DNA of 64,000 bases from Laetmonice hystrix (GCA_965235115.1 OZ249436.1:27654001-27718000); one strand, 5' to 3'; shown: positions 270 through 54,851, counted from the stretch's first letter. The notes: generated by a model not told the origin, from the letters alone. Translations and numbers: made by a program.

Positions 270-2357
270 AATGATGATGATCAATGGTTGGGGCATAAAA
301 AACTAGGCAGTCATGCATGCAGAACTTCATTATCATCGTTTCCTGCAATCACAGGCTATACTGCAATATTATAACATATAGACCCAGACCTACTTTAATT
401 GTGGCTATACAAATAACACCATGGCAGCAGGTGGCACGGGTCAGTTCGAGCACTCTCCCACCCATCATCAGTATGGATGGAACGATTTGCAGACAGGGAC
501 CAATAAGTTAATTATTGTGTCGCCTACTGCCGCCATCACGCCTGTGTTTTGGTCACATTAATTTGGAGCGAGGTTGGATGGGGGTCTGGGAAACCAATCA
601 GCATTATTCAGGTACATAACTGAATAATGACCCTGCCGCACGGCATGCATGCCCGGACTGAATGGGGCTTCTTGTCCCTGGGGACGGCAGTGGTGACCTG
701 CCCTCCCCTCGCTCTTGGTGGACTGGTTGTTGAGCTGTCGGGTCTTCTATTTTTTTAAAATATATTTTTATCTTTTATCGCTTTGACTCGTATCTTTCAC
801 GAAACGCAATACACCACCCAGGTAACGGACAACACCAATATTAAGGTAGCGCGCTGTTAACTTTTGATGATGCCTTAATTCCTGAAATCTTATAGGCTTC
901 GCGTATGAACCCATGTCACCGGGAAAGGTGTCAACGGTTGGCCTAATTTAACATAATAAAGAGAACTTCACCAAAAGATTGGAGGCCATAAGAGTATCCT
1001 GTTCTCATGTATATTGGCTTTTATTCCGTGTGCATTGTGCATTGTATGTACAATTAGTAGCATAGACATAATCTATCGTGTTACATCAGCATATCGTGTT
1101 ACATCAACATTGTCGTTTCGTCGTCCTATACCTGTATGTAAGTCATAAAACCATGCGTGACGTTTTGTCATATATTTATAGAGATTTGTCGCATCCATTG
1201 CGTCCGCCTCGCCCCACGCGCCTCCCGTTATGAGAAAATGGACCCTGGCCGACGTGGGGGGTCGCTGCCAGGGACAACGTCGACTCGAGGGAGCTCGGCA
1301 CTCGGGAAATGAAGATCGATGTGACCAATACGAACACAAGATGTTCCTTAATCAGAGCCTGCTTCCACATTCAGCTCAAACTGAACATTTAATGTATAGC
1401 TGGCCACTTCACGGAGACTCCTGTGGTATTGCCATTAAGACACCTAGGATTACATGTAATACTGTTGTAAGACGCCCTCAAGCTTCAATTCTCGCAGCAA
1501 GAAGATGGACCACTTTAGCAATGAGAAGTAGTGAGATTTTCCTCTCGATCCTCAGGCCTAGTTCAATCTCCGAGCAGTGAATAGAAATTTCAGTACAGTC
1601 CGTCTTAAAGAAGGAATGGTGAGAGGCGGCGCAAGCATGAAGATGCTAAGCATACTAATTAGGGGCCTATAGTGATAATTGCTGTACGTATAATGGACCT
1701 ACCAGATAGGATGTCCTTTTTTGTATTTTTTTTTACCCTCAGCCACAGACCATTGACCACATTTATATCTATAGTCAAGCACACATCTGAAATATAGAAA
1801 TGAAAATAAGAAAATAAATAAAGTTATGCAGCAGTAGGATATAGGGATATTAACATTAGAACAAGTCCAGTGTAAGCTTTGTGAGAAAATACATGATTGG
1901 TTTGTTAACTATTTACTCCTCATGGCTTCCATTATAGTCAGCCCATTTCATGCACTCCTTATTGTTATTTGAGAAGAGCTGTCATGTCCCTATCATTATC
2001 AGCGGACAGTAATTGGTGGACATCATGCCCTGTCGGAGGTGTCAACTCGGCGGATATCCTTGCCAAGGTTAACACTCTCCCAGCACTAACTACCCATGAC
2101 ATGGTGAGTAATCACAATGGCAGACTGTGGGGGACATGACGGGGCTATACGGCCGTCGTCTATCTGATTTGTGTTAATAAAACCTTCGTAGGTTTTATAT
2201 ATCATTCGGGATATTTTATGGTAGAGATTGTCTGAAAGCATAAGCATAATATTGTAGGCCTACAGCGACTAAACCATAGACCCAGGCTTAACATGCCTAA
2301 CGAGGAGAGAAGAAGGAAGAAGCGACTAGCCATTGTTGTTACAATGTTTGGGTTTTT

Positions 2358-2451
2358 GAAGAAGAAGAAGAAGAAGAAGAAGAAGAAGAAGAAGAAGAAG
2401 AAGAAGAAGAAGAAGAAGAAGAAGAAGAAGAAGAAGAAAAAAAAGAAGAAG
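2358..2451. repeat. (GAA)n microsatellite
   Basis: About 27 uninterrupted GAA units, then an A-run and further GAA. Confidence 0.97.
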
Positions 2452-2700
2452 ACTTAGCTAACGATATATCGTTATTACGACTTAGTATGTCGTTATTACG
2501 ACATAGCTATCTCGTTATTACGACTTAGTATGTCGTTATTACGACATAACTATCTCGTTATTACGACTTAGTATGTCGTTATTACGACTTAGCTATATCG
2601 TTATTACGACTTAGTATGTCGTTATTACGACTTAGCTATATCGTTATTACGACTTAGTATGTCGTTATTACGACTTAGCTATATCGTTATTAGACTTAGT
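2452..2700. repeat. Minisatellite of alternating 21/22-bp units (43-bp dimer)
   Basis: GTTATTACGACTTAGTATGTC alternates with GTTATTACGAC(T/A)TAGCTAT(A/C)TC; about 11 monomers. Confidence 0.93.
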
Positions 2701-3386
2701 AGAAGAAGGAGAAGAAGGAGGGTGGGCAAAGAAAGCTACTAAAGATAAATTGATAAGAAGAAGTTAATGGACGTTCTCGAACAAGGATGACACTACAGAG
2801 TCGTCTTGACCTATGTCGTCAACTGCAGTAGGTACTGCCAGATGGCAGCACCTATCGGCACGCACGAGACTCTATGCACTATTCCCACCAACACGGAAAC
2901 AGCCGACCTGAATTAGTTTGACTAATTATAGACACGAAACAATATGTTTGGGTTAGGGTAAAGGTTAGGCCTAGGGTTAGTGTTAGTTTATAGTCCCAAA
3001 ATTGTTGTTAAATAGGCTAGACACTAATTGAGCAGTGGATCTTGATGTCGGTGTCAATCAGAAACATCTAGGCCCTATGTGTGCTATTGACACTGCTCGG
3101 TGTCAATTAAGAAACATTCTGTAAACTATTGACATTGGCGTCGGTGTCAATACCCTCGGCCATTCTGTTTTGCCCCATGGGTTCAATAATGCCCCACTTT
3201 ACCGGCCTAATGCATCATGCTGCCATTTATACGTTTGTTGTGAACTTATAACCTATAAATAGGCTGCTAGAGTTTCCTTAGACGGCTGTATAAATATGGC
3301 ACGGAGTTACTTAGGATGGTGGCGTATACTCTGACCAGGAGACATGGGTCATGGTGCTAGCAATGTTAATTAGAAGCTCAGACCAA

Positions 3387-3568
3387 GGGTGTAGCCAGGG
3401 GGGTTTCCGGGTTGCCTGGAACCCCCCCCCCCAAAAGGTAATTAATAACTAATTAAATAACTAAATAGATCTAAATGAATTACTAATATTACGGTTGTGA
3501 CCCCCCCCCCGCCCCACCCCGGCCATCTCAGTCGGAAACCCCCACTTATATCAGTTCTGCCTACACCC
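3387..3568. mobile_element. Small G/C-run MITE-like element
   Basis: Termini GGGTGTAGCCAG ... CTGCCTACACCC form imperfect inverted repeats around poly-C/G tracts. Similar elements occur near 16.5 kb, 17.1 kb, 44.4 kb, 55.3 kb and 61.7 kb. Confidence 0.5.
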
Positions 3569-5700
3569 CATGCAGACCATCCGGAGTTTCAATGACATGG
3601 TCTTTGTTAGGCCTAAGTTTAAGACTATTCCATCCGTTGTTTAAGCCTACGCCTGTCATGATGTGTAGCCTAGTTTCTCCATGTTTAGTATACAAATGTC
3701 TCACCGACGTCTGAATGAAGATGGAAAGCTCATTAACTAGTCCTGGCACCAGCAAAATAAGTATTACTTAAACCGCTGACGTCAGGCCATCATTTCACCA
3801 CTTTCATGGTCGCAAAGCGAAATGGTGCTGCCCTCTTGTGTTAGCTCGATACACTATAGCGCAATCATCACTTCGTCGACGAGAATTTCAGCAATTTTTG
3901 AACCTGTGCAAAACAGAGCGCGTCGGCAATCTCAACTGCCTGACCTACCCTGTAGGCCTAAATTAATGTGGAATATTGCAGTGGTCGGCATTGGCGACTC
4001 CAAGATTTAGGTCCATTGAAGTGGGCACTGAAAAGGGAGGGATTATCAGGCGGGGGGTGGGGGGTGGTAACTTATCCGGCCAGGGAATGATTTAAAACGC
4101 TAAATAGGCTACATCTGTTTTACATAATATTAGGTCACGTTTGCAATGTTTGTATTCATATCTGGTATTGTAGTTCGCTATATGCCCCTATAGGCCTACT
4201 GGAATTTTCGCCTCAGTAGCCTATTCGCCACGTAGGCCTACGTACGCTCACAGAAAAGAGAGCACTCAGTCTTCACTGTTTAAGGGGTATCAAAGTATTT
4301 CTCTATAAAAACCATGTATTATGACTACTTCCATCTGTTGGCATTGTATAAATATCGTGTGGTTCTTGAAAGTATTCAAAATCACTGTAAATATTATATT
4401 CCGTCACCTACATTCGCCACAGATAAATGGTTGTGAAATGTATACTTCCCATTTGAGTATCTTCTCCAAATTTTAACAGTAGATGCCCTCGGTTATAGGC
4501 TACCGTTCATTTCCACCACTTGCACCCCCCCCCCCCATCAAGATGTATTTTTATGGCTTAGAATTGCAGAATGCTATCTCTCCGTGAAGGGCCGCAGGTG
4601 CCCGGCGGCCCGGCCAGGGAAACGTGGTGATTCCATCGGAAGCCGGAAGGTGGCAGTGCAGTCGGAGGCGCCGCTTTAGGTTATGATCCACTATTTATTT
4701 TCTTCTATAATTTAATGTAATGTTTTGGCCATTTTCAATGTTTAAAATAATTTCTGCGAATGTCTGCTTGGCATGGCAGGTTAGATATGCATGTTTCCGA
4801 CAATAAAAACTCAATTTACGTATAGGTTGAATGATTAGATTTTATTTTATCGGAGCTTCTGTTACATGACCCCAGGTGGCACCACCAAATCGACCAGAAT
4901 ACAGGCCTGTGATACATAACATATTGGCTAAGATTTTCCAAGGAAAGTTAAGCAGATATTCTCTAATAATACACTGATATTATTGATCATATAGTGAACT
5001 TTTTCTCTGTGGTATTTGATGAGCACATTCAGGGGGGTTATATCCATTCTTGGCCCTAGATACATTCACTCCATACCATTTTGAGGGACAACCAGCAGCC
5101 CATTGGCTAAATAGGGGGTCATGACCTTTAGTACAGCACGGCGGCGTTTGCCTGCAACATCTCTGTAACCTTTATACTTGGGGATGGGATATCTGATGTA
5201 GAAAAGGCGTACGACCACTTCATTTGCCATTGCTAATTTAACCTTTACGGCAAACTGCCATTGGGACTAGCCTACTTGCCAACGTAGTGGGACGCTTAGT
5301 CTACAGACGGTCTGTCTGTAGGGGAAACAGATTAGGCTGGCCTAGGCCTACGTGACCTGTGATGTCATAACGACATAAGGATGGCATTCATCATATTTTC
5401 TTAGGGCGATAACTTGTAGGCCTAAATGGTTGAGGTTAGAACCAGAGTTACTATTAGATCTAAACACTAAAAGGATGGTCTTTCATTTGTCATATTGACA
5501 TAATTTGCATCTTCTAATGCGTATTAGTCGTTCGGGTGCATGATAGCACCATTGTTCTCATACATAACATGTCGGACGGGACAACCCTTCAAAGGCGGAT
5601 CCAGAGGGGGGGGGGGGGCACAGGGGGCACGTGCTGCCCCTTTAGCTTCACTAATTATAGGCCTAGGCCTACACGGCTATAGCCTACTCATTTTTAATTA

Positions 5701-6688
5701 GGGGAGAGTGGGGCAGGTTGAAACATTTTTCACAAAAAGTCATTTTTACAAAAATCTAAAAATACCTATTTATTATCTTCATGCTGTTTTAATACTTACA
5801 TTATGTGTGTTACAAATTTATCATAAAAGTTCAGTACACGAATTGCGCAATACCGAGAAAAAAATATATTTCTGACCCTGGTCAAAATGCGGGGCCATAG
5901 CGGGGCAGGTTGGAACACACAGGTAAAGCAGGGATAGAGTCTATTCAAGATTTATGACGGCTTTTCTCCTTTTACCAGTCGCTTCTTGGTTCTTTTAGTA
6001 TATTTGATGTGAAGGAATGAATGGTTGGGATCAATTTGATTCGGACATCACCCAGTCACACTGCATAATTCTTGAATAACCCATCATAACCCTCAGTGAG
6101 GTTGACAAAAAATAATGTCATTTAAATACAACAACACTTTATGACACAAATTTGGCCCTGTCTCTTTTGTTGAGATCTGCGCATTAAGACTAAAAAACCA
6201 ATAAGTGTAGCACCTACTTTTTTTTCTAAAAATAACAAATGCCTAAAAAAATGTATGTAGGGGCCTATATAAACACTGTTCCAACTTGCCCCATCAATCT
6301 TGTTTCAACCTGCCCGACACACATTTTTTACATATGCATGCAATGTACACAGCACACAGTGAGATTGACACAATCTTTTATATTGCATCCTAACTAGTTA
6401 TGGTCATGTAATCCACAGACTATATGGTTTATTTTTGGCTACTGCAGTTAGGCCTACTGAAAAAAATAAACATTCGTGACTTGAAAAAAGTTTACTCAAA
6501 CATGCAAAAATCAAACAAACCTTTCTCAAAATATCGTTGTTTCCTAAAGGGTTCTTTATTCAATATGGTGGATGGGTAATGTGAGAGGCTATCATAGGGT
6601 GGCAGCACCACCTCTAGCAGCTTCCTTGTTTTTGCAAAAAATCCAATGTTTCAACCTGCCCCACGTTCCAACCTGCCCCACTCTCCCC
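5701..6688. mobile_element. Non-autonomous Tc1/mariner-pogo-like DNA transposon (TA TSD)
   Basis: Perfect 20-bp TIRs GGGGAGAGTGGGGCAGGTTG / CAACCTGCCCCACTCTCCCC, TA on both flanks, internal reiterations of the GGGGCAGGTTG motif, no ORF. Confidence 0.85.
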
Positions 6689-7346
6689 TAATTTTAACAC
6701 TGACGGTGTGTCTCAGGGAAACCCCGAGCTATTATGTAGGCCTATAGGCCTAGGCCTACCTCTAAAACTCTCATTCAAGAGCATGAGCTTTAGATGCTCT
6801 CGGCTATAGATTCTAGGCCTACCTTTCTTTTCCACCACTTGCACCCCCCCCCCCCGATTCAGATGTAGGCTAGATCTAGGCTAATGTTTTGGCTTAGCAT
6901 TGCAGAATCCTATCACTCCGCGATATAGGCCTTTGTAATCTATCAGCAGAGTAAGTCAGATCTTTTATTGGAGAACTGTTGGCCGAGGCAGGACCGCCCA
7001 CCCGAAACAGTTGAAATGGTCGGTGGTTGGCATTGCTACCCCCTTTATAGGCTAGGCTAGTGGTGACATCTGGTGTAAAACAGATCCATTATAGTACCGC
7101 AGTTTTCGATTGTATTGCAAATCGATTTTATTATGTAGCGTTGCCTCCAAAGACATGCGGTCATGCTGCGTTCTCCGGAATGTTATCGGTAGTCAATAAA
7201 GTGGTACTGTTTTATTAGAGTCCTAATTTATCGTTGATATAGGGTGGTATATAAATAATCTATATATAATCCACTTAGTTTCAGCATAAGTATTTTTCAA
7301 ATATAGAACAACTGAGACCTGCACACATATGAACGCATTCATGAAA

Positions 7347-7370
7347 TCACATGCTGACAGCATCACATGA
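7347..7370 (+). promoter_or_regulatory. Tandem CACATG E-boxes (M-box/CLEAR-like) just upstream of the GLMP ATG
   Basis: TCACATG at 7347 and TCACATGA at 7363 (reverse complement TCATGTGA, the MiT/TFE M-box core), 10-30 nt before the ATG of a lysosomal gene. Function is inferred. Confidence 0.4.
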
Positions 7371-7379
7371 TCAGACAAA

Positions 7380-10300
7380 ATGGCGCTGTGTCGGTATGGT
7401 TTGGTGTTTGGCGTAACTCTTCTCGTCGTGCAGATCTGTTTATTTAGTTGTTTAACGGACTCGAAATTTACCAGAAAGGTTCGTAGTCTACATTCAGTTA
7501 TTTGAGTTCGATAAGATGGCTGACCTACAAATACTTTTTCAAATCAAGCTCAGAATCAGTCTCTACTCAGCTTGGGCCTTGGCCGCAGCGCAGGGCAGAC
7601 ATTCCTGGGCCCGGTTTTTTGGTTGAGCTTGAGTCAAGTTTGAGACGAAAACCTCGTCTCAAGCTCACGGCCCTATGAGTCGACTCCTATAGGGCCGTGA
7701 GCTTGAGACGAGGTTTTCGTCTCAAGCTCAACCAAAAAACCGGGCCCTGGCACTGCCCTGCTGCAGACTGCAGCAGTCGGAGACTCGTAACTCGCGCGTG
7801 ACTGCTACTAGTGCTAGGCCTAGGTCATGTGCTACAGTCAAAGCCACTACATATCATATCAATAGAAAGAACAAGTGTATTTGATTTTAAAAAGGTAAAA
7901 ATATCCATATTCAGGCCTGTAAAAATCGCATAAAAAAGTGGTTGTCCTGAGGACAACCACTTTTCAAAATATGGTTGTCCCCACATAATATTTGGTTGTC
8001 CTCACACAAAAAAGAATGTTGGCTTCCTAGGGATATTATTAAATGTTTACTACATTTTGTAGTGCCTATGACTGCACAATGTACGTCTGAAGCATTATGA
8101 CCATAATACAGATAGAGAAAACATGCAATATATATACAATAATCTCATTACATCAGCTGAATGAGGTAAATCTATACAAATGTAGATCTATGGGTCACCG
8201 GAACATAAAGTTTTATACATGTATAATACAAAACATGACTGGGTGCATTTTCACTAATTATATTTTTTTGAATGTCCTTTTATGTGTCTGGAACTTTTGC
8301 AGTTATCAAGCCAGGACAGAATGGCCTCATCTGAATTGAACTCTGCAAGGGAGGGTCCATTAATCTTAATCTGCATCAGCTAATTGAGACAGTCCTGCTC
8401 CAGTGTAGGCCTACTCATTGGTGTGGTTCATTGCCACGACTTCGCCAAATGAGCGATAATGAATTACCTATGATCGTCTGCTTTTTAACAAAATTGGAAA
8501 ATAGTAATTCACTGTCAACCTTTTGCTGGAATGGCGCCAATCCAATACGTATACAGAGTGCTGTTCCGTTTATAACGCACCGGTGCATATTTTGAGTTGA
8601 CTGGACGTGTCCCCTGCTTGTACCATGCTTCATTATAATATTCAATGGCTAGGGGACCCGTCGAAACAACATAACATGCCGACAAGATGGCGCCGACACA
8701 CGAGTACCTGACGATTTTTGATCGATTTGTCTTTATTTAACTGCCATTAAACGATAAAATAAGCGTCGTTTTCGGGATTTAAAAGGTGGTTGTCCGCGTG
8801 TACGCCCAGATATTTATTTTTGGTTGTCCGCACGGCTGACATAGGCGTCTGGGACACGCGGACACGCGATTTTTACAGGCCTGATATTACCATGCTGACT
8901 TTTGTGTTGGCTGAAAATGCACGTTACGGTAGGCCTACTGTTATTAGTGTTAATTTGAGTGGAATGCCAGTGAAAACGTCCCCATGCAAGGATGTCCCTA
9001 AGTGAAAACGTCCCCAACCGCCAGGTATATGTCTGCCCCTCCGCATGTACGCCGGCCTGCCGCCGTACATACGCCTGCCGCCCGTGCTCACCTTGCATGG
9101 GCCTTGGGCTGCCGCTGATCCACTGCTTGGAAATGTATTCCATGAAAAGAATGATGGTGCTGTGGGTCTGTGCCGTAAAGCAAATGATGTCTCCCTTTCT
9201 GAAATATAATGATAATCATGGAACACTCAATTGCAGGCCTTCCAGCAGTCCTACTTTTCCTACTTTTTCCTACTTTTTTGGCCTTGCTCCTACTTTTTTC
9301 TTGAAATTCCTTCTTTTTCCTACTTTTTCGTGATACATCTCAATTTTTAGCTCTGCTGACTATAGTATAGTCAGAGCTTAATGTAAATGCAAGGCTATAA
9401 TGTGCAGAAGTGGTGAGTAGTTACTGCAGGTCCAAAGCTGTAGACTGGCTGCACCACAACTTCACCTGGGCCCGGTTTTTAGTTCGTCACTTTACCAATC
9501 TTAAGACTGGAATTTTAAGACTGACTTGTGTTATGGGCTCTCATTGGCTGACTTCATTCGAAGGACCAATCAGAAGCTCTGAAACAAGAGTTCAGTCTTA
9601 AGATTTGAATCTTAAGACTGAGTTTGCAAACTAAAAACCGGGGCCAGGGCCGAAAACTAGGACTCTGCATCGTACAGCACCAAGCCTGAAGAGGTCTCTG
9701 TTTCCTGTGAAGCCATACTACTCCTGCAAGCCTGCAAAACTCCTACTTTTATCCTACTTTTTATCCCCAATTCCTACTTTTCTCCTGCTTTTTCCAAAAT
9801 TGTGGTCCTATTTTTCTCCTACTTTTTCATCAGGGTCTGCTGGAAGGCCTTTTAATGTAACAAAGTAACATTTTAGACAGGAGAGCAAATCACTCTCATG
9901 GGCATTTTTATGAGGAATGTTAATAGCTCTCCACCATTTTTCAAACTGCGAGGCCTGCCGAAATGCTAATTTTTAAATTTTTTGTTTGGGGGGGGGGGGG
10001 GGGGCAGGGGGGGCTTACTTTACATTTTATTACAACTGGTTGATCAGGGATAGGCCTACATAAAGTTAATGATGTCCCAGACGGGATTGTAGAGTCACAT
10101 ACCAGGGTATGCCTATATGCACTAACGAGTCCCATGAATGTGTGTGATACAGTGACGTCAATTAGTGAGGGTGGCAGAAGAAGTGCAGAAAAAGTGACAA
10201 ATACTACAACTTCTACTGTGCAGCAGGAGTCGAAATTCTTTGGTCAAGGGGCACAACAATTTTTGTCTTAATAGTTTTGATCTATGAGGCCACCACTGCA

Positions 10301-13220: not shown

Positions 13221-13386
13221 GGTTGACTTGAAATCACTTAGCGCGTGTTATAATACTGAACTTATAGTACACAAAGATATGGGCAGTCTTAACATTCCAA
13301 ACATGGCTTTGGATTGGCTGGATTTTACTTGACCAGAAAAATCCGAAGCCATATCAAAGATTGGGCATATTTTTGGCATCAGAGAC

Positions 13387-13460
13387 ATTCTTCCCTAGCG
13401 GAAAGCAGCACTAGGACCAATTTATTCTTCCCTAGCGGAAAGCAGCACTAGGACCAATTT
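13387..13460. repeat. Perfect 37-bp tandem duplication in the GLMP 3' region
   Basis: ATTCTTCCCTAGCGGAAAGCAGCACTAGGACCAATTT twice. Confidence 0.9.
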
Positions 13461-23434: not shown

Positions 23435-23467
<33 letters not shown>

Positions 23468-41930: not shown

Positions 41931-43373
41931 CTAATATTTACTATACTAGCCATAGCATAGGCTAGCCACCACGCTGACCTTTTTTTTATTGTTGGAGTAG
42001 GCCTACGACACACACAGTACTCGGTCACGGGCACAGGGACTCGATTCCTCATCTCTCACCCCCTCCCCCGCGTTCATCATGATGTCATGTGACATATTGA
42101 ATCAGTGTGTGTGCCTGTGCTGTGCATATATAGGGCCATATTATAAATAGCATAAAGGCTTGGATTTGTTTATTGGTTTAATTTTGAAACCCCCAGTGAT
42201 CTGTGGGGTTTTCTCAGCAAGCAATTAGGCCTAAGCCTAAGGCCAAGGGTTGTTTTGGGGGCAAACACCACAATTGGGCCATTCCAAGATAAAGCGCGAT
42301 ACTGTCGCCAGGACATTGCTGCTCTTACTACATAGACTGGCTTTTTATCTGCCAATATTAAGGAAAGCATTGGTTTTGAAAAATTACACAAGGGTTTTAC
42401 GCGTATCTAATCCTAGGAATAAGAGAAATTCGATGTCAAAGTGGCGAAAAACGGCATTTTCATGATGTTGCCAGCAATGTGATGTTCAGGAAAGGCCACC
42501 GCAGTATATGACAGTATCTGGGAATAATCTGTTTATTCATAAACATGGATGAAAGGAAAATAAAACTTACACTGAACGCCTCACATTAACCTCACCAGAA
42601 CTACTCGCCCACCAATAACCTCATGTCGTCAAATCTGGGTCAGATATGTTACCAATTTTAAATATTGATCTATAAAAATAGTTGTACTTGGTAAAATTAT
42701 CTGTTATATAGTTTTATATTAGGGCGTTAGCTTCTTTAAAAATAAATAGCTATGGGGAATTATCTCTATGAATGAAAAGTTCAGGACCCATTAACAGCTG
42801 TGTTGTGGCACTGAATTAGTATCAGATACGTTACCAGTACTTGGGAAATCATGGCGAGAATAAGGACCAGTACAGTCGAGACATCTATACAAAGTTGAAG
42901 GTACTAAATATAGTGACCGATCACGCCTAGAAGAAACTGGCTAAACAGATAAGTTTTTCAATGGTGGCATTTTAGAAGTGAGGGTTAGATATGTTCCCCT
43001 CAGATACGATATGAAGTTGGATCAACATTTTCTTGTGATGTAGGCCTACATCAAAATAATGTACATGTAGATGCTGCATGTTTTTTTTTATTAGGTCTAC
43101 AGCATTTTATATGGACCATTTGTCGTCTTACATGGCATTGGGACGAGATAAATAAAGTTCTTGAGCAGCTGACTAACTAATGTTTGTGGAGAGTTTAAAG
43201 ATTTTTAGTCGGAAAAACGACTAAAGAATGTGACAAAGTAGTATGCTGAAAGTTAGGGTACAAAAGGGTATAGATCTACCAAAGTTCAGGCTGTTTTTTT
43301 TTAATTTTTTTATTATGATTAGAATTTACTCATAATATATGTGTTCTCTCGTAAACAATTCTCTTTGAGACAG

Positions 43374-44487
43374 ATGGATAGAAGCAAGTACAAGTACCAA
43401 CAAGTAGGTGTCGAAGGCCGTCCAGTGGTTCAAGTTGATACTGGAAAAAGCCAGTTGTTATGGCGGAGCATCAATGCTATTATGGTGATATTCTTTCTCC
43501 TGGCAGCTGTTGTGCAGGTAATTAAGGCAACATTAATGTTGTCCAAATTAAAATGCTGAATGTAATTGAAATGTTTCAGCCTCAGTATGTGGCTGAAGTA
43601 GTACACAAAATACAAGATTGTTGAGAGTAAGAAATATCCACGCCCCGTGTTCGTTAATTACAACTTGACATCCTGCCAACACGTCGAGAGGTATTAGATT
43701 CATCTACAAAATGTATTCTACACCATAACAATTCATGTATACTGATATTATTTTTCTAAATTTGTTATAGATAAATGATCCAGACCCAGGAATTTGGATA
43801 GTAAGTATCATTCAATGAGTTACAGAGAACCAATCATTCTAATGAAAAAGATGACTGATAGATATTTGGCTTAATTATCTGTGTGAAAATAGGAACGAGA
43901 CTTAGAATTGAGATACCCACTCATTAACATCTGGGATATGTTAGGGGATAAGTATCGTCCATTGTTGTCTTTAATGTATTTTATTTGATTCCATGATATT
44001 GACACATGTACATGTAGTAATTATTTGTAAGAGGTCAGAGGCATACCTGTCTGTAGACAAAAGAAAAACAACCCAAAAAACGACATACACATTGTTTCAG
44101 TTCAGTTCTCACCCAGTTACCTGTATAATGAATCATATGTTTTAATATATATTTTTATATAAAACAATAATTGTGGTTCATTAAAAAAAGGTTTCATACA
44201 GTTATGAACTTCTAGATATGCTAATATCTGTAGTTTACATAGGGGTTCTTACACAACAATAAATAGATACGCTCTGGACGTTGTCATAACATTCTTGCTA
44301 AGTCTCGTGATGGCCTAGAAACGCCTAACACAAACACCAGGGGGCAGCATCGGTATTGAACCCACACGTTGGGCCTTGTAGGGCTTTGGCTTGATGTGTG
44401 ATGTCGGTTAAAAACTATGTTATACGTTACATAGGCGTAGGAACCGGGGAGCAGGGGGGGAGGGGGGCGTCAGCCCCCCAATATCAA

Positions 44488-44522
<35 letters not shown>

Positions 44523-46167
44523 GGGGGGGGGCTGGAGTGTGTTTCAGCCCCCCCCCCCCCCAACATTTGGGTGCTTTCTTGGTCGAGGTTCGAGGTGGGT
44601 TTCATGCCGATTTTCTATGTATCGCACATAAAAATAATGGAATTTTGTTGATAGATTTGAGAGAATTTTGCCCCGAGATGCTCAGAAAACGCGTCTCCGG
44701 CATTCCTGAAAAATAATTTCTGGGGGAGGACCCCCAGACCCCCCCCCCCCACGGCCCGCTTCGGTGGCCAGGAATTATCCCCCCAACCTTCAGCCCCCCC
44801 CCCCCCCCAACCAAAAAGAGCTTCCTACGCCTATGTGTTATACATGTATTACAAGGGTTATAAATTGGCATTGTTCTTTGTTCGTACTTCATTGGTACGT
44901 ATGTTTGACTGTATTGATCTCCTCTAAATGTATCGGTATGGATGTTTCAACCATTGCCTCATCTTTTTTCTGTTATGAAGTGGTGTATCATTTTCAGTAA
45001 TCACCTTGTTCTAGTTTCGAGGCAATAAAACATGATGTAATATAGGATTATGTTGTGATCGACACATGTGTAAAAAAATAACATTATGATGGAAACATAA
45101 TACATTTTGGTGACTGGAGGTTTGAAAGACTCATTACAATGGTCACAATTGGTTCACGTTGAGCTTATAAATTTAAAGAGAATTTTGCTGTTTTATTGAA
45201 CGGTTAAAAGATCTTATTATCTTATCCTGCTGATGTGCGTGCAATCTCCCACAACATGTAAGAAAATAATAAAGTTATCAGATTGGTTTTATTTCTTTCT
45301 TTTTTCATTCTAGCCTGCCTACGTTGTACCAGCCTTGCTAAGCCTGGCTGTTACTGTGAGTCCGTCGGTAACCCAGGCGACATGGTGGAGACTTGTAACA
45401 GTGGGCCACATGGCCTTGTGTTTGGCCAGCAGTATCTACCTGACTGGCGTTGTCGTGGAACATCTGGCCAGCAAAGTGGTCAACCCCCTAGAGCATGAGG
45501 AGGGAAGGTAATGTCAAGGGTAGTCAGGGCAGACGGGCTCTGTGTGGGGGCCGCGGTAGCACTTAGTGGTCTAAGGTTCCGGCTGGTCACCAGAGGGCCT
45601 TTCATTTTTTAGAGCTGTATGCGGGAAGCTTGGATGTGGCCATTGCTGGTGCGGAGGCGTCTATGCCAATTCAGAATGGTTCTGCCTTCAGCCTTTGTGA
45701 TATGAGAAGTTTTGCCCTATAACATCTTTGTTGCGCATTAAAATCCAGAATGGGGTCAAGAATTTTCAATAGTTTAAATATGATTGAGAGGTTATGAAAT
45801 CACTTGAATACGTTCACCTATTTTTGTTTTTCAGGGAGCTAGCCGGGTTGGTCATCATTATGGTGTGGCTTGGTATAGGCAGATTTACAACCCTCGGAAC
45901 GTACGTATTTGGCGAGAGTTAGAAAACGGAATTATTTATTTATTTAATGATATAAGTGAAAATTTCATGGTGATTTACTAGTTATAATTTTTGTTCCACC
46001 ACAGGCCGGATCCGGAGCGAGGTTCGATGAGCGCCCTGCTGTTAGTGACCTGTATCCTGGGCCTTCTTCCCCTTGTTTTCTGGGGAGTGTGCTTAGTGGA
46101 TGAGTTAACACCCCACCTGGGCCACTGCAAAGACATGTTTAAAGGAGGCATTTTCAGCAAGGGCTGA
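43374..46167 (+). CDS. TMEM220: Transmembrane protein 220 homolog, 5 coding exons (~198 aa)
   Basis: Exons 43374-43517, 43771-43800, 45314-45507, 45835-45900, 46005-46167, GT-AG and phase-consistent. LWRSINAIMVIFFLLAAVVQ-INDPDPGIW-..YVVPA, HEEGRELAGLVII and a C-terminal HCK match the TMEM220 family. Confidence 0.9.
44430..44835. mobile_element. G/C-run MITE containing (TG)n in TMEM220 intron 2
   Basis: 14-bp TIR CATAGGCGTAGGAA / TTCCTACGCCTATG. Confidence 0.7.
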
Positions 46168-48079
46168 GTTATAGAAATAATTTTGACCTACAGTTTTATT
46201 TATGATTACGAAAGTGACTTGCTGTTATTTTTAACTGCCAGTCAGCAACTGTATAATTTTTCGTAAATGTCATACTTAGGTGAAGAACTCGTATTAGACA
46301 TCAGAATGGTCAAAGATGCCAGATGGTGGTACTCTCACATTTGTGCCAATTTTCCGTCTTTTTCTAAGTCTATTAATTATTCAATATGAGCCATGTATGA
46401 TAAGAGTAAAAGATATTTTAATAATGTTACGCTTTCCTTCCTCCGCCCAAAGAAAAAAATCGTGACGCAAATTCTATTTTATCGTACTGCATACGAAACC
46501 AAAGGAGACATGGGTCAAAACCTTTCGTGATTACCATTTTGACACGAGTTAAGTCGTTTTGCTCAGGCGTGGTTTTTGCAGTTCTACGTAATCTTTCACC
46601 AGAGAATGTGTGGGCGTCGGACAACGTACAATCAGTAAAAATATCTCCGTTTTGACGAGGCTTGAACATGTGACCTTTGTGGATGGTATAGGTCGTGTTA
46701 CTGGCGCCCAATAATGCAGTTATGGATTACACTGCACTAATTACTAATGGCACTGAAACTGAAAGGTAAGAATGTGGAACTTTTAAGACGGGCCGAAGCT
46801 ATTAAGAGAATGTTATGCCTGTATCTTATTGAGAGCGCTTAAATACATAATCATAATGTAGCTTCAACGAGGGAAGGGCCCCAAGAACATAGATTAGGGG
46901 TTAGACTCTAACTTGAACAAAATATAAACATTATTTTATTTTTACAAACAGACCACCTGAGTTTGTCACTTTGATTCACTAGTTGACGTTTGAAAATTAA
47001 AATACTCTTGAAAGCTGTGCAAAGGGCAGGAGATTCTCTAAGGCAGGGTCAAATGTCAACCGGTGTGTCAGATATTATGAGGGTAAAATGCTCCACCAAG
47101 GCCCTAAACATAGACTGGTAGTTTGGGTCATCTCATTGCATTGTATTTCGAAAAGCCTCTCTAAACCATCGGCATGAAACGACGAACTAACACGTCTTCG
47201 ATGACCCTACATGATACATTACAAACGGCAACATGCTGACCGAACGTAATATAGCCAGCGTTCGACAAGCCGGGTTTCCAATGACGTCGTTACCGAAAAT
47301 GCTTCAGACGCAGATGGCGTTGGCGTTCTTCCGATTTGTTCCGGAAATTGGACCGAGTTGAGCCGGAAGTGTCTTGGACTCAGTGGTTTCTTCCGACAGC
47401 GCGTGTCTCTATGGTTCTACAAAGGCAGCAGGTTATTTTAACCCAAACGACTGCTTCTAATTGGAAGGGGACCGCTATTAGATAACGCTGCAGTCGGAGC
47501 GAGCTTGCTCCCCGGAATAACCAGTGGAATGTTGCCGTAATTGAATTACAACGCAATCTTCTCGCCCGACATGTATGGCAGTATTCTCCGCCAAGGTCAG
47601 TTTAGCCACCAGCGATTATTTAGCTCAGATAATGTGGAAAGGACAGTGGAGGGGAGCTATGCGAGCGTACGGCCTGAGTGGTGTATAGGTAGGGTACTGA
47701 TACCCCCACAGGCCCTGCAGAAGGCAACAGTCCACATATATCAGAGATAAGATAGAGGATGAATCAAAGAGCTAGTAAATGATACATAATTATACACGTA
47801 AGCCTTTTTTTGGCCGGGCGATACATAATGGAAAGAAGCTCGTACGAAACATGTACGCAGAAGATGTTTAGTAAACAGTTGGTTGCTGATGACAAGATAA
47901 GTCTCTCCAAACAGGCTGGTGCACAGAAAGAATTTGCAGAAGAAGTCGAGAGAAATTTGAGGATCGTGAGTAAATCGGTGGGGGAGGGTATGCACTATAG
48001 ACAATATTCAGGGTCATATGAACCATTTAGTTTAGTCAAGGGCCTCCCCCCGAGTCCTATAGGGTGGGAGAGGATGAAG

Positions 48080-48230
48080 TAAGAAAGCACCCTGCCACCG
48101 GCAGGCAATCTCCTCTTTTTCGAAAAATGGCAAGGGTCCATTTTTTTTTAGGCCCAGTCGAACTGTCGTACAGCTGGACATACCAAAGCCTTTGACGACC
48201 CAGTTGCGGGGTACTGGGGAGGGCCAGTAA
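48080..48230. mobile_element. Probable SINE fragment
   Basis: CTCTTTTTCGAAAAATGGCAAGGG motif is also found as CTCTTTTCGATAGATTCCAAGGG at ~49832, which suggests a dispersed repeat; the family is not determined. Confidence 0.3.
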
Positions 48231-49534
48231 GACAAGTGGTATTGGAAGGCTGTAAATCCATCTGTGCCCCACACAGACGATAGTTATACTACGTACACGG
48301 GGTTGGAATAGGGACACCAAGAAAAAGTGCTGATCATGCAAGAAACGTATACATTGAGGAAATTGGCTTTAAGACAACATGGTTTACGTCTACCTTTGCT
48401 GTACCCGTAGGCCTACACTTTATTCTTAATTGAAGCGCCCTGAATAATTATTACGAAGTCGCATCTAGCGCGTCTTAAATTTCTTTATTTCCCCAGCTGC
48501 AGTGTTATATCCTCTATAGGCCTTATTGGAATATTCCCGATGACAGAATAGTCCATAACGGTGACTATAGGAAGTTATCAACTAGGTCGAAACCACCTGC
48601 ATATACATACGTACATACATTAGGAGCGGACTGGGTCTTCAAACCGCCCCTGATGTACATCGATTATAATTGCGTAACAGCTGGGAAATGTTCAATGTAG
48701 TCTTGAAATAAGTGGTGCTCAATTGTCACTCAATGGAAATGCGTTGTACAAAATTAATGATGAATAGGTGTGAATAATTCATTAAGTTCTGAAGCAGCTA
48801 TCATTGCCTATAAGCCATTCATCAGTTGTGTAATAAGCCTCAATCGCTTTCTATTGAACTGATCCTCCAAACCTAATTGTAGAAAATTGCATTTGAAGGT
48901 GTCTTTAACTATCTTTTTCCATGCCGTCCGTCCTCGTAGAGTTGTGCCATTAATCTTGTGGCGTAGTTGGTATTCACGTCGGTCATACCATCTGCACACA
49001 TCCCATCATAGTAAATTATAAACAAGTATTGAGAACAACACCTTTCATTTCTAGAGAGAATATAATTTCATTTTAATTGGTTTGAAACCGCGCCTTGCTG
49101 CAAAGAAGAGAGGCATCGAGGCATGCAGTAAATGTGCACCAGGCTAATGTCTTTTTAAGTTCTCTATTAAGACTAGATATGAATGTAGCCCCCTCCTTGA
49201 TATTAATATTAAAACACGCGCCCCACCTGTCATCAAATTAAAGGGGATCTATCACGGCAGAATCGACTGGAATCTCCAGATTTATGCTTACCCCTCCTCA
49301 ACAGTGGTGGTAGTGAGTGGGTGGGCGGGTGAGGGGGGGGGGGTGAGGGGGTGATTTTCTTTTTTTAAATGCACGGGCATCAGGCGTAGCCCAGTTACTT
49401 TGAGAATGTTAGGAAAGAGAAAAGTTGTCTAGTCTACTAACCCAGTTACTTTGAGAATGTCCGGAAAGAGAAAAGTTATATAGTCCTCCATTGGAATTGA
49501 ACCACAGAGTACCCACATATCTACATATCTATCT

Positions 49535-49625
49535 GTGATTGAACCCCGGCCCCAAGATTACTGCACCCATTCGCATAGCATAAGGTATCAACGCCCATGC
49601 CCACTCGGCCACCGCCACTTCCCTA
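49535..49625 (-). mobile_element. tRNA-derived SINE head (degenerate)
   Basis: Minus strand reads GGCGGTGGCCGAGTGG (Pol III A-box) ... GGGGTTCAATC (B-box-like); no complete cloverleaf. Confidence 0.4.
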
Positions 49626-50631
49626 AAAAGGAAGCTTTGGTGGTCGAGCAGGACAATGGACCCTCCCCTTACACACATCTTTCGAGATGAGACGGAATCC
49701 ATGCTTTTAGTTGGTGTTTAACGCCCAGTCAGCAGTATTTCAGTAGTACTTTCAGCAGTGTTTAATAGAAATCTATTGGGTGATAATGATGAGATGATAG
49801 GAAGAAACCCGAGCACCGGGGCGAACCCCTACTCTTTTCGATAGATTCCAAGGGAGCTTTAACGTGCCCCTCCACATCGACGTATCGTGACAGGTTTGAA
49901 AGGAATCCAAGTCTCCCTGAAATATGCAGGCCGTTATATGACGGGAAAATGTTAAATGTGGAAAGTAATAAAATATCGTAGGAAGTTACCACCGCTGTAC
50001 TAAGTATAAATTGTTCAGGAAGGTTGCAGCTGTACCTGTGTTATTACCCGGAGCTGATTCCGAGCTCATTCTAATTAAGGAATATTTTTTCCTCGTTTAA
50101 GATTATTACTCTAGGCATGGGATATATAGAGACTCAGGGCGTGAATGGATAACACATGTGTGGTATCTCATTCTCCTGATTAATTCATACAAGAGTACAA
50201 TTCTTCCAGGAGGTTTTCTGTTTAATTTCGAAGATTTTATTTTAATTGCCTTCATTTTCTCAAATGAAGTGTTCCGGAGACCACATTCTGATAGACCGGT
50301 GAAACTGGAGTGCGGGTTTGTAGGTTTCGCGACACATTATACACGTCTAACGTTACAGTATTAGCCTTGCCTTATCCCAGGGGCGGATTGAGAATTGTGG
50401 TAAGGGGTTGGGGTTAGGGGAAGAATTTGCTAAGGGTGGGGTTGGGGTGGGGGTGGGGGTGGGGTGGGGTTCAGCACAGTCAATTCAGAAAGTTCTTTAA
50501 AAAAGAAACATTGGTTGCCAAGGGAACTGTTTAAGTCCCCTACACCCCCTGGACCTGCCACTGTATCCCATGTGCCTAGTATGGTAACGACAATTCAGGG
50601 GCTGCTGTTGTCGTCGACAATTCGTCGTTAA

Positions 50632-51082
50632 AGGGATGGAAAACACACACGGCAAATAAGGTTTCGCAGACCAAATGAAACACCAGCATTTACCTCAGGG
50701 CAATAAATGCCACAATTACGTTGTCTGAATGAAGTAATTAACGTGTAACTGCCCGATGTGTGACGCCGCTGGTTCTAACCTTGCTCTGCTTGTGTGTTCA
50801 TCACCTCGGACTTTTACAAACGTTAGGACTCCAAACATCGTGTAGACAAGGTCTGTGAGCAGAGTAACACGTAATGTTACGCAATACGCCGTGGTATGCA
50901 GCATTCGGCTCTGATGAACACACAAGCAGGTCAAGGTCAGGAACCAGCGGCGTCACACATCGGGCAGTTATACACGTTAATTACTTCATTCAGACAACGT
51001 AATTGTGGCATTTATTGCCCTGAGGTAAATGCTGGTGTTCCATTTGGTCTATGAAACCGTGCCGTGTGTGTTTTCCATCCCT
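50632..51082. mobile_element. Long-TIR foldback MITE with TTAA TSD
   Basis: ~170-bp near-identical inverted arms starting AGGGATGGAAAACACACACGGCA; TTAA on both flanks; ~110-bp spacer. Confidence 0.88.
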
Positions 51083-52798
51083 TTAACACTCCCAGAGTCG
51101 GGTCCCGGATTTTGATAAGGGGGGGGGGGAGGGTCAACATGGTCAATGCAGAAAGTTTTATAGCGGGAAAAAAGAAAAATCGGTTGCCAAGGGAGGTTAA
51201 ACCACCCCAAGCTTGCGGCAAGCGTTTGCGTCTATTTTGTCGGTCGGTCGGATAATGCCAATATCTATACATAGTTATAAAGTAAAATAAATTGTAGGAA
51301 AATCAGCACTTCGGGATTCATATGCAAAATAAAATATTCGGGAGACTATGTATGTAAGCCTGTAGATCTATACGTGGCACATGTGCCACCAGTGAATATT
51401 TTATGGGATCATTACCGGATCGTCTGCAAAGCGAATGTTGTAACAGGTTTCAGAATCGATACATAGATCTATTGATGTTGGCAGGATAAAAACATTTCGG
51501 TGTGAAAATGTAAAAGGGTTGGCATGTCGGAGAGAAATATATTCTAATCGTATGAGTAACACAACCTAATTCCGCGACCAGGACAATAAAAATGCTAACG
51601 GTTTTTGATTAATCAGGCCTCTTTTGCTGCAGCATTTTCCAATATGATCAATTTATTGATCCAGAATGAAGGTATGCTCACCAGTGTGCCTACCACTAAT
51701 ATAGCCTACGGAAGAGATTAGACGTCAGTGAGGCTGCTTTAAAACCACTCTGATGAAATATGTGCATCCAACGTTAAAGGATTTACATTGTATGTCAATC
51801 TGGTTGAGCGTCATTGGAATCCAGTTCGGCCGGGTTTCATGCTTACCTCGTCAAAAGCCTTCTGTCAAATATGTTTAATATACATTGTACATAGGTTTTG
51901 TGAACAGACTGCGACGAAATGCACTGTCACCCTCACATTCTACATTTCTGGTCAGGATCGCTCGAAAGCAAGGCTGGGGCCATACTGCTTCTTTAGCGGA
52001 ACCGTAGTGCACACTGCATGCGAACAACGATATAGTTCTCCTACGAAACCGTTCTGTTTCTGAACATCTTTACGCCATAGCTATTTAACAGTACATCGCT
52101 ACTTAAGTCACCATTGCCAATTTGTCCATTGTATATGAAATAGTTGACTTAAATCCTTCCATAAAATAAAACTGCTTCCATATACGCCTACAGTAAACAC
52201 GTCCATATATCACGCATATGAAGTGAAGGTTGGCAAAAATTTGCGCTCAAAATAGGGTAGTTTTCCATTGAACTGAAAAAGACGCTCGTCTTTTGGCGGT
52301 TTGTTTTCACATATAAGAGGTAGAAGGAATTATTTTCAATACTTGCTGTACATTATCGGGTTTTACATTCACGGTTAGGGTTAAGTTAAGAATCGTAGAT
52401 CTACAGGGTGTCTCCCCCAAAAAGTAGTCCATGTTCAAAGGGTCATTATGACTAAACATCAATTCACATGTCATGTGAAATCCTGCTTGGGACAGTTTCA
52501 ATGCCTTCAACGCTTACACGAAATGTTCCCAATTTCTCCGGTTCGGGGATCCCCAGACCCAGTGTTGCGTCTCATAGTGGAACTTTCCAGCGCGGGGAGA
52601 ACAGAACGTTCACTTCTGTGAGGTGTTGCTTGGCTATGACGCTCCCGTTTGGCCGCCTGATCCCTTGTCTGCACGCAGACTTCTTTCCATCCAAAGCCGA
52701 TTTGAGAGTTAGTCAGGGTCGTATTGATAATTTATTGAAGTCAAATTCTATTTAGTTGAGGGGACGAGAGGTCGTGTAGGTTTCATCGGCCTACCTAT

Positions 52799-53358
52799 GG
52801 CTGAGTTCACATAGGAGTATACGGTATACGGTATTCGCAAGCGCTACTCGGTATTCGCTATACGCTATACGGGCACGGCGAGTCACATACAACGAAAGCA
52901 CACGTGCCAATTCCCCTACATATCTGCCCATAGATCTAAAAATCTGGTTAAAAAATACAAAGAACTGTATGAGGCTAAACTTTTAAACACAGGCACCCCA
53001 GACTGAGATATACAAGCCGCCTGCCGCCCGCCAGTGTCTTAATTCCCGACATGAATTGAAAGGTGCCCCCTGCCCCTCCCCTTGAACCGATTTCTTTGAA
53101 ATTTTTTGAACCAATACCCCTATATATCGGCCCTTAGATCTGAAAATTTAGTTAAAAATATCAGGAACTGTGTAAATGCTGAACTTTTAAACACAGGCAC
53201 CCCAAGGTATACGCTGCACTAAAATCGAACAAGCACGATTCCCACTATACAGTACTATACTATACGCAGCTATACGGCCTTTTCGAATAGTGCCCTCTGA
53301 TGTGACTCGGTATTATAAGATCCTATGTTCCTATGTGAACTCCTATGTGAACTCGGCC
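52799..53358. mobile_element. Harbinger-like MITE
   Basis: TIR GGCTGAGTTCACATAGGAGT / ACTCCTATGTGAACTCGGCC (19/20); internal direct repeats containing AACTTTTAAACACAGGCACCCCA. Confidence 0.7.
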
Positions 53359-54507
53359 TAAACGAATCAGAACTTTGGCGTACGCCGGGAGGGGCAGCGG
53401 CCAAGAGCCGCCAATGGGCTGCCCGCGGTGAGGTGCGAGTTGACTATAAAAAAATATTAGAGTCAGTCGCCTGGGTGCGGGTTGACCTGTTACCGTTTGG
53501 GTTGTGAGGCGATCGGCGCCGAACTAATATCAAACTTTTTTATATTGAATCGGGGGGCGATCGGGAGTTGTTCGTGGCGGCTGGATCCCGACTGACCAGA
53601 TGTACTTACAAGTGTCAGATCCACTGGCGCCGGATCACGTCCAGAATTTTTCAGGCAATCAGGACGTGATCGACCCCGATTTTGTCCAGTGCGTCATAGC
53701 CTTAAAAAACCTGATATTTCGGCCGCTGGTTATGATAAAAAGTACTACACAATGGTAGCATAGTAAACCATGATTTTCAAGACAGCTCCGAAACTGTCAG
53801 TGTCAGATACACGTTCGTTACCACACCTACTTCCGGTAAGCAAAACGTCACTTTTGGTGGGGGAATCTGAAGGAATAATTCAGCACCTCACCCATCAAGG
53901 TTCAGGATTTCTTTACCCGTATTCAACATGAAGTCAACTTCTTCCCTTGGCTCTTTGCTCCTCACGGGAGAAGTTGACTTCATGTTGAATACATGCCATT
54001 TTCAAAACAATGGTGCTCAGTGATAAATGGCTGGAGTAAGATAACTGGAAAACTCACCACCTCTACTTTATGCTGAATGTTAATGTGAATTAAAATATAG
54101 TTTGGCCATAATGGCCCTTTGAACGTGGATTACCTTTTTTGAGACACGCTGTAAATATATGGTTAGAATGAGCATCTGGTCTCGCCCCCTTGATGACGTC
54201 AGAGCCAGTTGCTGACTTGAGCCATCGGGGTTATTTATCAAGTTACCGTATCAAGACTGAACCATTGACAAGTTTACACAAACATCAGACCCTATTATTT
54301 TTAAATAACTGACTTTTTTAAAAGCCGGATTGTAATTCTGGCCGCGTTCTGGCATGCAACATAGGCGGTTTCTCCTCGACAGTGTCCGTGAGTTTCCGAC
54401 CTTCGAGAAATTCGAGAAATACCGTATAATACACGTTACCCCTGAATATGGGAATATCAAGGAAAAATAACTAAACAAACAAAATATTTATCAGCTAGAT
54501 AAGTTAA

Positions 54508-54851
54508 AGGGAATAGAAAAGTTCCTCACTAACGTAGGCCTACCTTTGAACACCAGTAACACATATATAAAGTGTCTAAGGTCACACCGAAAAGTGGAAT
54601 ACTGTCAACGGCGACTTTTTAAAAAAACCGCCGGGGTCATTCGCTATTTCCCACGCGAGACAGCGGAGCTATATCTATTAATAGATTGAGGTAAGGGCCA
54701 AATAGGGTAAACAAACCGACGAAGCCCACGGGAGAATGTCTCTACATTTCGGTTGATTATTCCTTTATTAAAGATCAGATAATCACAGAATTGTAGGTAC
54801 AAGCTTGTTCATGCTGAACACCCTTATATAGTTTGAACTTTTCTATTCCCT
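54508..54851. mobile_element. Kolobok-like MITE (TTAA TSD)
   Basis: Perfect 17-bp TIR AGGGAATAGAAAAGTTC / GAACTTTTCTATTCCCT flanked by TTAA. Confidence 0.82.

Follow-up and report, generated by a model that had tools for sequence, protein, structure and literature searches.

The stretch of DNA analysed here, referred to as the window, comprises 64,000 nucleotides of the Laetmonice hystrix genome (GCA_965235115.1 OZ249436.1:27654001-27718000; 627 Mb in 35 contigs). It carries exons of GLMP/NCU-G1, NEIL1 and TMEM220, all scoring above the Pfam cut-offs, with the first exons of GLMP and TMEM220 predicted from open frames. Around these genes lie short palindromes bounded by TA, namely TAGGCCTA, TAGATCTA and TACATGTA, together with the 7-mers TAGGCTA and TAGCCTA (Table 1). 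The original prediction had read the palindromes as micro-insertions deposited at TA in open chromatin, for example excision footprints or hairpin-repair scars of a TA-targeting transposon, that accumulate with age. It had put their numbers at about 30 for TAGGCCTA and about ten for each of the other two; 30, 11 and 13 are present, the 30 including all 27 copies that had been located. The expected concentration of about 19 TAGGCCTA at 2.2-10.1 kb was found as 19 of the 30 at 2255-10058, and the chains in which neighbouring words share a TA, at 6737 and 33460, are as described.

Under an order-2 Markov model, 1.0, 0.8 and 2.1 copies of TAGGCCTA, TAGATCTA and TACATGTA respectively would be expected in the window. 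For TAGGCCTA the expectation rises to 4.8 at order 4 and 13.2 at order 5, in models whose training set contains the motif itself. An order-4 model trained on sequence in which the motifs had been collapsed gave observed/expected ratios of 14.1, 6.0 and 3.4 in 1.05 Mb of random genome. The whole genome has 168,757 TAGGCCTA against 3,469 of its reversed control, and 37,955 TAGATCTA against 9,864. The 331 copies of TAGGCCTA in 120 random 10-kb loci fall in 81 of them and are clumped, with 69% of copies within the top 10% of 1-kb windows. The 7-mers are also in excess in the window (19 vs 6.2 expected), longer G-run forms are present, and four of the 13 window TACATGTA represent two sites multiplied by local duplication. 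Windows rich in one of TAGGCCTA, the 7-mers and TAGATCTA tend to be rich in the others (rho 0.14-0.18), a tendency not seen for TACATGTA, as would be expected if the first three share one source clade. Chains in 1.46 Mb comprise six GGCC-GGCC, six GGCC-GATC and three GGCC-CATG. The excess of one-change derivatives of TAGGCCTA is about half that of the exact word, indicating that the process leaving these scars is both old and ongoing. Derivation of TAGATCTA from TAGGCCTA by double mutation was ruled out, as the single-change intermediate is too rare (61 vs 29 expected).

Wherever a homologous copy or a second allele permits reading, the palindromes are six-base insertions at TA. After masking of tandem repeats, 1.68 Mb were aligned all against all, with polarity assigned by the majority of copies; two loci duplicating the window were dropped before these counts and the flank test below, and where one element was nested in a host repeat, each variant counted once however many copies carried it. 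This gave 328 independent polarised insertions. The 34 of 6 bp include 12 TAGGCCTA, four TAGATCTA and two TACATGTA, and the 21 of 5 bp include seven TAGCCTA, so that scar words make up 25 of the 55 independent 5-6 bp insertions in repeats. Among TAGGCCTA with at least two homologues, 46 of 112 were extra relative to the majority, compared to 0 of 83 for five control palindromes; 16 of 38 covered 7-mers also score as insertions. The target TA is duplicated around the inserts relative to the empty sites. Thirty copies of the repeat at window 4440-4600 show GGCCTA, GGCTA, GCCTA or GATCTA added after many different TA, mostly as single-copy events, and plain-TA homologues were found for window sites 4105, 4217, 4233, 4496, 6258, 6449, 6866-6883 and 54535. 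At site 3608, contigs of runs X3 and X4 lack exactly six bases that those of X5 carry, the region 3540-4083 being otherwise identical; the three runs are of one sample, possibly the source of the assembly, and therefore show two alleles rather than independent individuals. The predicted polarised micro-insertions at TA are thus borne out by the proposed alignment of repeat copies and alleles.

Joining the first two letters of a resident TA-flanked element to its last two gives the four letters inserted. Among the 16 words of the form TA-XY-Y'X'-TA, five are enriched more than twofold (GG 14.1x, GA 6.0x, CA 3.4x, CC 2.4x and GT 2.4x), and each of the five has a resident element with the same tips. 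The third base also tracks the tip for GG (GGG+CC 6.3x, GGA+CC 1.35x) and for GA (GAG+TC 2.65x, GAA+TC 1.26x), and the G-run series runs from GG+C at 2x through GGG+CC at 6-7x to GGGG+CC at 6-11x. A GGC...GCC tip cut to leave 3-base overhangs was considered and rejected, because TAGGCGCCTA is not enriched (2 vs 0.7-0.8) whereas GGG+CC and GGGG+CC are. The hybrid word expected from locus L300, TAGGTCTA, is enriched 2.2x; it is also a one-change decay product, and others of that kind are equally enriched. The flanks preferred by the GG and CA elements are those preferred by their respective words. G precedes the TA at 33 of 56 GG ends and at 12 of 50 CAGT ends (p=4e-4), and it does so for 41% of TAGGCCTA over a background of 23%; A precedes 25 of the 50 CAGT ends and 46% of TACATGTA, over a background of 31%. 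Natural-log likelihood ratios for the 56 GG ends were 16.1 with the TAGGCCTA flank profile vs 3.5 with that of TACATGTA, and the 50 CAGT ends gave the reverse pattern (12.5 for their own TACATGTA profile vs 5.5). The 7-mers are enriched 3.3x in the flanks of GG elements (p=0.0005), and TAGGCCTA stands at 0.6x in those of CA elements.

A TA-duplicating transposon fitting the words had been proposed as something to look for, and tips were found for TAGGCCTA, TAGATCTA and TACATGTA. The non-autonomous element at 5701-6688 belongs to the GGGGAGAG family and may be of the type that donates TAGGCCTA; the genome has 55 occurrences of its 17-letter end, and its relative L276 has a broken pogo-type transposase similar to the intact transposases of the GG families. 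Ten loci taken from partial DDE_1 matches represent seven families, of which six have TA-GG at one or both ends (L290/291, L292/293, L294/295, L296, L297 and L299) and one has TA-CC tips (L298). Open frames in the GG donors, including L294/L295 and L297, are 655-945 amino acids long; the frames of L294 and L295, two copies that are 99.9% alike, measure 945 and 946 amino acids. Both of these frames also contain a long 54-bp tandem array, in frame, and the GG-tipped pogo transposase at L299:2078-4594 has a C-terminal OTU-like protease domain. DDE_1 is found in all eight donor proteins (including that of L300) and HTH_psq in seven, L290 having DDE_1 and no DNA-binding domain at E 0.001. The catalytic spacing is 35 in L292, L296, L297 and L298 and 36 in L290, L294, L299 and L300; in the CA-ended pogo proteins it is 29-30 in 12 of 13. 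In trees of this genome's proteins only (a quick method and FastTree), the GG/CC proteins form one branch apart from the 13 CA-ended pogo proteins (support 99; quick tree). The putative donors are pogo elements whose resemblance to Fot-like members is one of domains alone, and no membership of Fot/Fot-like is claimed. These donors have perfect terminal-repeat stretches of 18-29 bp plus subterminal repeats, and measure 3-4.2 kb where both ends are covered (5.2 kb for L300, including a nested element).

De novo terminal-repeat scans of 1.7-2.0 Mb gave no convincing GA family, and a stricter end pattern gave none among the matches listed. A looser pattern based on the shared end layout revealed one, with TA followed by GAGTAGAGCGGGG in 47 of 92 matches; this GA-tipped family was sought and found from word counts, through the correspondence of word to tip. 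All nine facing pairs of GA ends at most 2 kb apart, when fetched, were TA-GAGTAG...-TA elements, and eight are one family of miniature inverted-repeat transposable elements (MITEs), 1.0-1.65 kb long and 94-99% alike, with perfect terminal repeats of at least 25 bp and ends that resemble those of L297. L300, tipped GG on one side and GA on the other, codes for a transposase with HTH_psq and DDE_1 that the nested element splits and that groups inside the GG pogo branch. Among the GA elements recovered, none was intact and had GA tips on both sides. For CA, the best DDE_3 and DDE_1 matches are mostly Tc1 and pogo elements with TA-CAGT ends, and donors with an intact transposase include L040-L043 and L213-L215, among others. 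L117 has GT tips, as does the L051 family at one end. The latter (L051-L054, L059 and L060) is a 2.27-kb family, 97-99.6% alike, with unequal tips and a 490-amino-acid frame with a weak DDE_3 match; it was likely active recently and is a candidate source for TAGTACTA.

The words are very probably 2+2-base excision footprints of TA-targeting cut-and-paste transposons. Footprints of this group consist of the first or last 2-4 element bases between two TA (PMC6943129) and are made by end joining of 3' overhangs (PMC6943129, PMC7913693, PMC9976928, PMC2874221). The transposase would cut two bases inside each tip and leave 2-base 3' overhangs on the host DNA, and end joining by fill-in and ligation would turn GG tips into TA+GG+CC+TA. 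Their GA-tipped sisters would give TA+GA+TC+TA, and the CA-tipped Tc1/Tigger-like elements TA+CA+TG+TA. Trimmed ends (2+1) or deeper cuts (3+2, 4+2) could produce the minor forms. Each scar would offer two fresh TA targets, allowing chains to grow by repeated hits, and slippage may contribute to the homotypic ones. The GG and GA donors, taken as one pogo clade (HTH_psq, DDE_1, DD35/36D), would likely hit the same preferred regions, often near gene starts. TAGGG-type ends account for 44 among 89 C1 matches, or about 370 genome-wide by scaling, with other GG families outside the pattern, so that there are some hundreds of scars for every element end. Such a ratio could arise if few elements are present at any time while near-neutral scars persist. 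If substitutions are assumed (without measurement) to occur at 3e-9 to 1e-8 per site and generation, the scar count would hold steady with about 0.004-0.013 new scars arising in each genome every generation. Each element would then have to undergo about 1e-5 to 6e-5 scar-leaving excisions in a generation, which is judged plausible.

Several observations weigh against this account. No site came to light that carries the element in one copy but the scar in a second, nor was excision seen directly; at the one nested element site examined, all 11 host-repeat copies are filled. Among the 112 covered TAGGCCTA, 44 are mixed, 15 are common to the majority and seven arose via substitution, and insertions are just six of 23 covered TAGATCTA and three of 13 covered TACATGTA. 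The 21 GA-end flanks (G7 A7 T6 C1; one is a GG end) show no clear match to the TAGATCTA flanks, and TAGGCCTA is only 1.7x enriched in the flanks of GG elements (p=0.09). The third base is off for CA, where CAG+TG is depleted (0.52x) and TACAATGTA enriched (2.3x), and GGGT+CC is unenriched (1 vs 1.0) though GGGT begins four families; slippage could be an alternative source of the G-run forms. Transposases with CA ends are many, yet TACATGTA is rarer than TAGGCCTA. Tc1 breaks in C. elegans germ cells lead to varied deletions and not a uniform scar (PMC4490562), which means that the present account has to assume precise repair. Scar-bearing repeats also feed the genome count, namely a tandem array at the start of C1 and one dispersed family. 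The array (C1:19565-90405) has units of about 850 bp with TAGGCCTA in nearly each, the scar having probably spread by satellite amplification. Many copies of a dispersed repeat (e.g. C1:15641351) have TAGGCCTAGGCCTA or TAGGCCTA at a constant position upstream of a YY1-like motif.

Within the window, 26 of the 30 TAGGCCTA lie at -5.2 to +3.0 kb of the three start codons, zones that cover 38% of it (binomial p=7e-8, with limits set post hoc). TACATGTA is not clustered there (four of 13), and the spacing of TAGGCCTA to the start codons is scattered. The further words that had been noted upstream of NEIL1 and TMEM220 are there (Table 1). The earlier remark that the two young long interspersed nuclear elements (LINEs) are free of the words is true, as none of the three 8-mers occurs in their bodies, but about two TAGGCCTA would be expected there, so this absence alone is not significant. 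Outside the window, two of five hot clusters are upstream of a gene start (no control set). A Pfam scan of hot loci, with no cold-locus control, took in 150 frames (L091 26 of 35, L114 25 of 27, L099 24 of 30, L151 three of 29, L161 one of 26; none of L198 and L196). L099 is upstream of a G-protein-coupled receptor and L151 downstream of one, and the dense cluster at L091:3121-7337 lies between divergent genes for an amino-acid permease (minus strand) and Fringe/CHGN (plus strand); L070/L071 and L114 had no Pfam match among the frames scanned. The density of TAGGCCTA does not follow the observed/expected CpG ratio (rho 0.03, p=0.32, 1,172 windows of 1 kb), only the lowest bin being lower. An excess of TAGGCCTA 100-130 bases before a YY1-like motif (325 vs about 187 expected) vanishes when one repeat family, which supplies 48-49 of the first 100 matches, is set aside; TACATGTA in that position numbers 61 vs about 67 expected. 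An association with ETS is probably confounded by a motif-carrying repeat, and the sample holds just one tRNA gene. Clustering of the kind predicted for open chromatin is strong in the window and at two of five hot clusters elsewhere, but with the CpG and YY1-like proxies flat, targeting of promoters or open chromatin is suggested, not shown. The predicted accumulation with age is partly borne out: the density rises from 0.11 per kb in repeats of at least 97% identity to 0.41 at 92-97% and 0.62 at 85-92%, but is 0.11 in the small (27-kb) bin below 85%.

Table 1. Words and associated elements in the window, with coordinates counted from its first base.
Feature	Position	Contents	Remarks
Main cluster	2255..10058	19 TAGGCCTA, 4 TAGATCTA, 11 TAGGCTA/TAGCCTA	Surrounds predicted GLMP start codon 7380
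TAGGCCTA of main cluster	2255, 2966, 3608, 3953, 4191, 4233, 5343, 5417, 5658, 5664		
TAGGCCTA of main cluster, remainder	6449, 6737, 6745, 6751, 6814, 7815, 8406, 8930, 10051		
TAGATCTA of main cluster	3466, 5455, 6871, 8183		
Segregating site	3608..3615	TAGGCCTA	Six bases in one allele, not in the other
Word within high-copy repeat	4233..4240	TAGGCCTA	Plain TA in the commonest forms of 26 homologous alignments
7-mer scars, same repeat as 4233	4105..4502	TAGGCTA 4105, 4496; TAGCCTA 4217	Plain TA in most copies
GGGG...CCCC-tipped non-autonomous element	5699..6690	Element 5701-6688, 988 bp	Position includes both TA
4+2 form within 5701-6688 element	6258..6267	TAGGGGCCTA	Six homologous alignments without it (commonest forms)
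Word within 5701-6688 element	6449..6456	TAGGCCTA	Plain TA in 6 of 6 homologous alignments
Triple chain	6737..6758	Three TAGGCCTA	Begins 47 bases past right-hand TA of 5701-6688 element
Mixed chain	6866..6883	TAGGCTA + TAGATCTA + TAGGCTA	Single TA in other repeat copies
Two isolated words	12775..16968	TAGGCCTA 12775, 16961	12775 within GLMP intron
NEIL1-upstream words	33453..34002	Chain TAGGCTA/TAGGCCTA/TAGGCCTA/TAGATCTA at 33453-33479; TAGGCCTA 33995	1.2-1.8 kb upstream of NEIL1 start codon (32203, minus strand)
TMEM220-upstream group	39764..43278	TAGGCCTA 39764, 41998, 42226, 43041; TACATGTA 43062; TAGATCTA 43271	Predicted start codon 43374
Right-hand words	48408..54542	TAGGCCTA 48408, 54535; TAGATCTA 51363, 51464, 52396, 52931	TAGGCCTA 54535 inside a MITE, absent from 7 of 7 covering copies
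All 13 TACATGTA	1451..60065	1451, 8216, 15254, 23568, 23747, 25115, 25294, 26580, 26973, 43062, 44009, 44841, 60058	

Other repeats are present in the window. The non-coding repeat at about 4090-5560 is of very high copy number, with contig depth about ten thousand times that of single-copy sequence; its window copy is broken at about 4675-5127 by an element of about 450 bp between TTTA repeats, and 30 loci around its copies hold 61 TAGGCCTA in 95 kb, more than twice the genome mean. An element of about 975 bp with CAGGCCTG ends (7911-8885) lies just past the predicted first exon of GLMP, its absence being bridged by contigs. A NEIL1 intron contains, at 31627-31676, a short perfect hairpin with TAGATCTA at its centre and 7-base direct repeats, which resembles a minimal MITE. 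Upstream of NEIL1, a 1.2-kb element with 24-bp terminal inverted repeats (32887-34066) contains the chain at 33453-33479; a THAP reading of its frame at 33021 was rejected, having no Pfam match. Minisatellite arrays were found at 17705-19075 (37-bp units), 27101-30550 (76/82-bp) and 58411-59306 (38-bp), and the 3' end of the LINE at 20539-23467 recurs in a local duplication offset by 1,547 bp.

Other origins of the words were weighed against excision footprints. The same transposases might scar DNA without full transposition, by abortive integration or immediate re-excision, so that most sites never held a settled element. This would suit the surplus of scars over element ends and the lack of any element/scar pair at one site, but it is unlikely, as the rough steady-state sum closes without it and settled, near-identical elements exist. 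A transposon-free host process, in which nuclease or repair activity at TA adds untemplated or slipped G-biased bases, could produce the G-run series and would fit the absence of GGGT+CC as an enriched form. It leaves unexplained the fixed symmetric GATC, CATG and CCGG words, the preference for GAG+TC over GAA+TC, the match of word to tip and the crossed flank signatures, and is considered very unlikely.

Selection of the words as transcription-factor sites clustering at promoters is highly improbable. On this reading GGCCTA would be a ZFX-like site, and both the concentration around the three start codons (within post hoc limits) and the L091 cluster between two divergent gene starts are what such sites might show. 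For TACATGTA, Irx has been proposed (PMC3520976). However, the words are independent insertions with TA duplication at many different TA of old repeats, their spacing to start codons varies and no YY1-like excess remains without one repeat family; they are not a promoter motif inherited in place with fixed spacing. Selection is thereby refuted as the origin, and some scars may have been co-opted later. The least probable source of the excess is inheritance from a repeat or satellite consensus, or slippage and hairpin repair. The C1-start array, with the word about every 850 bases, and the dispersed family that supplies 48-49 of the first 100 YY1-like matches would agree with a consensus origin, as would the 15 of 112 covered TAGGCCTA shared by most copies. 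However, 250 of 356 TAGGCCTA lie in sequence without a homologue in the sample, with the word spread over random loci as given above. Slippage is unable to make GGCC from bare TA. Hairpin-repair scars, part of the original prediction, are unsupported because the insert is constant whatever the flank, with two exceptions. In these independent events (L030 and L139), TAGATG became TAGATCTATG by a gain of four bases and not six, and the added four are the left flank in reverse complement. These events could be explained by a scar that later lost 2 bases or by an addition of the hairpin type, and inserts elsewhere do not mirror their flanks. Consensus and slippage are thus refuted as the main source, the former contributing to the genome count and the latter perhaps to homotypic chains.

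If the words are indeed excision footprints, a textbook by-product known from assays is here a main class of natural short insertion and is still segregating. With three matched donors, the correspondence of word to tip makes donor ends predictable from word counts alone. It is possible, though we hold it only tentatively, that a gene-start-homing pogo clade is a leading germline source of 5-6 bp insertions and writes a code of GG, GA and CC tips into regulatory DNA, and that abundant TA-bounded promoter palindromes elsewhere, such as TACATGTA in Phytophthora, share this origin, some being later adopted by transcription factors. Were this true, the word spectrum of the genome would record past transposons and where germline chromatin was open. 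Abundant palindromic motifs near genes may then be mutational, and an apparent control motif would likely be a record of past jumps. In searches that left subscription papers mostly outside, no literature was found on TAGGCCTA as a whole word, nor any paper counting footprints as a genome-wide class of natural insertion; the hits for TAGATCTA, judged by title, concern unrelated topics.

Among known systems, Tc1 leaves 2-base 3' overhangs (PMC4490562) and taCATGta is its footprint in C. elegans (PMC3520976). The likeness extends to the duplicated TA that encloses two bases from each end of the element, the identical word TACATGTA and the CAGT-tipped elements resident here; unlike in Tc1, where the footprint is called rare and germline repair is described as highly variable, the 2+2 form dominates and three tip types occur side by side. 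Sleeping Beauty, ZB and Passer, the last a member of the pogo superfamily, similarly leave 0-4 terminal bases between two TA after end joining (PMC6943129, PMC7913693, PMC9976928), but those results come from single-element assays, and the Sleeping Beauty words TACAGTA/TACTGTA are depleted here (0.69x). The putative donors resemble Fot/Fot-like pogo elements in combining HTH_psq and/or HTH_Tnp_Tc5 with DDE_1 and in duplicating TA (PMC7386202). That source gives the spacing as DD35D, and the donors are DD35D in four of eight and DD36D in the other four; terminal repeats are 40-60 bp in most of its members, compared to about 25 bp perfect here, and Fot-like elements are listed in protists and algae, not animals (PMC7386202). 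The Phytophthora promoter motif-1, TACATGTA, is likewise an abundant TA-bounded palindrome upstream of genes (PMC3520976); a further paper concerns a Phytophthora factor (PMC11134190). In PMC3520976 the motif is read as a transcription-factor site, a footprint being set aside for its conservation and abundance, whereas in Laetmonice hystrix the same class of word arises by insertion. The correspondence of word to tip makes the published view of TACATGTA as too abundant and conserved for a footprint testable.

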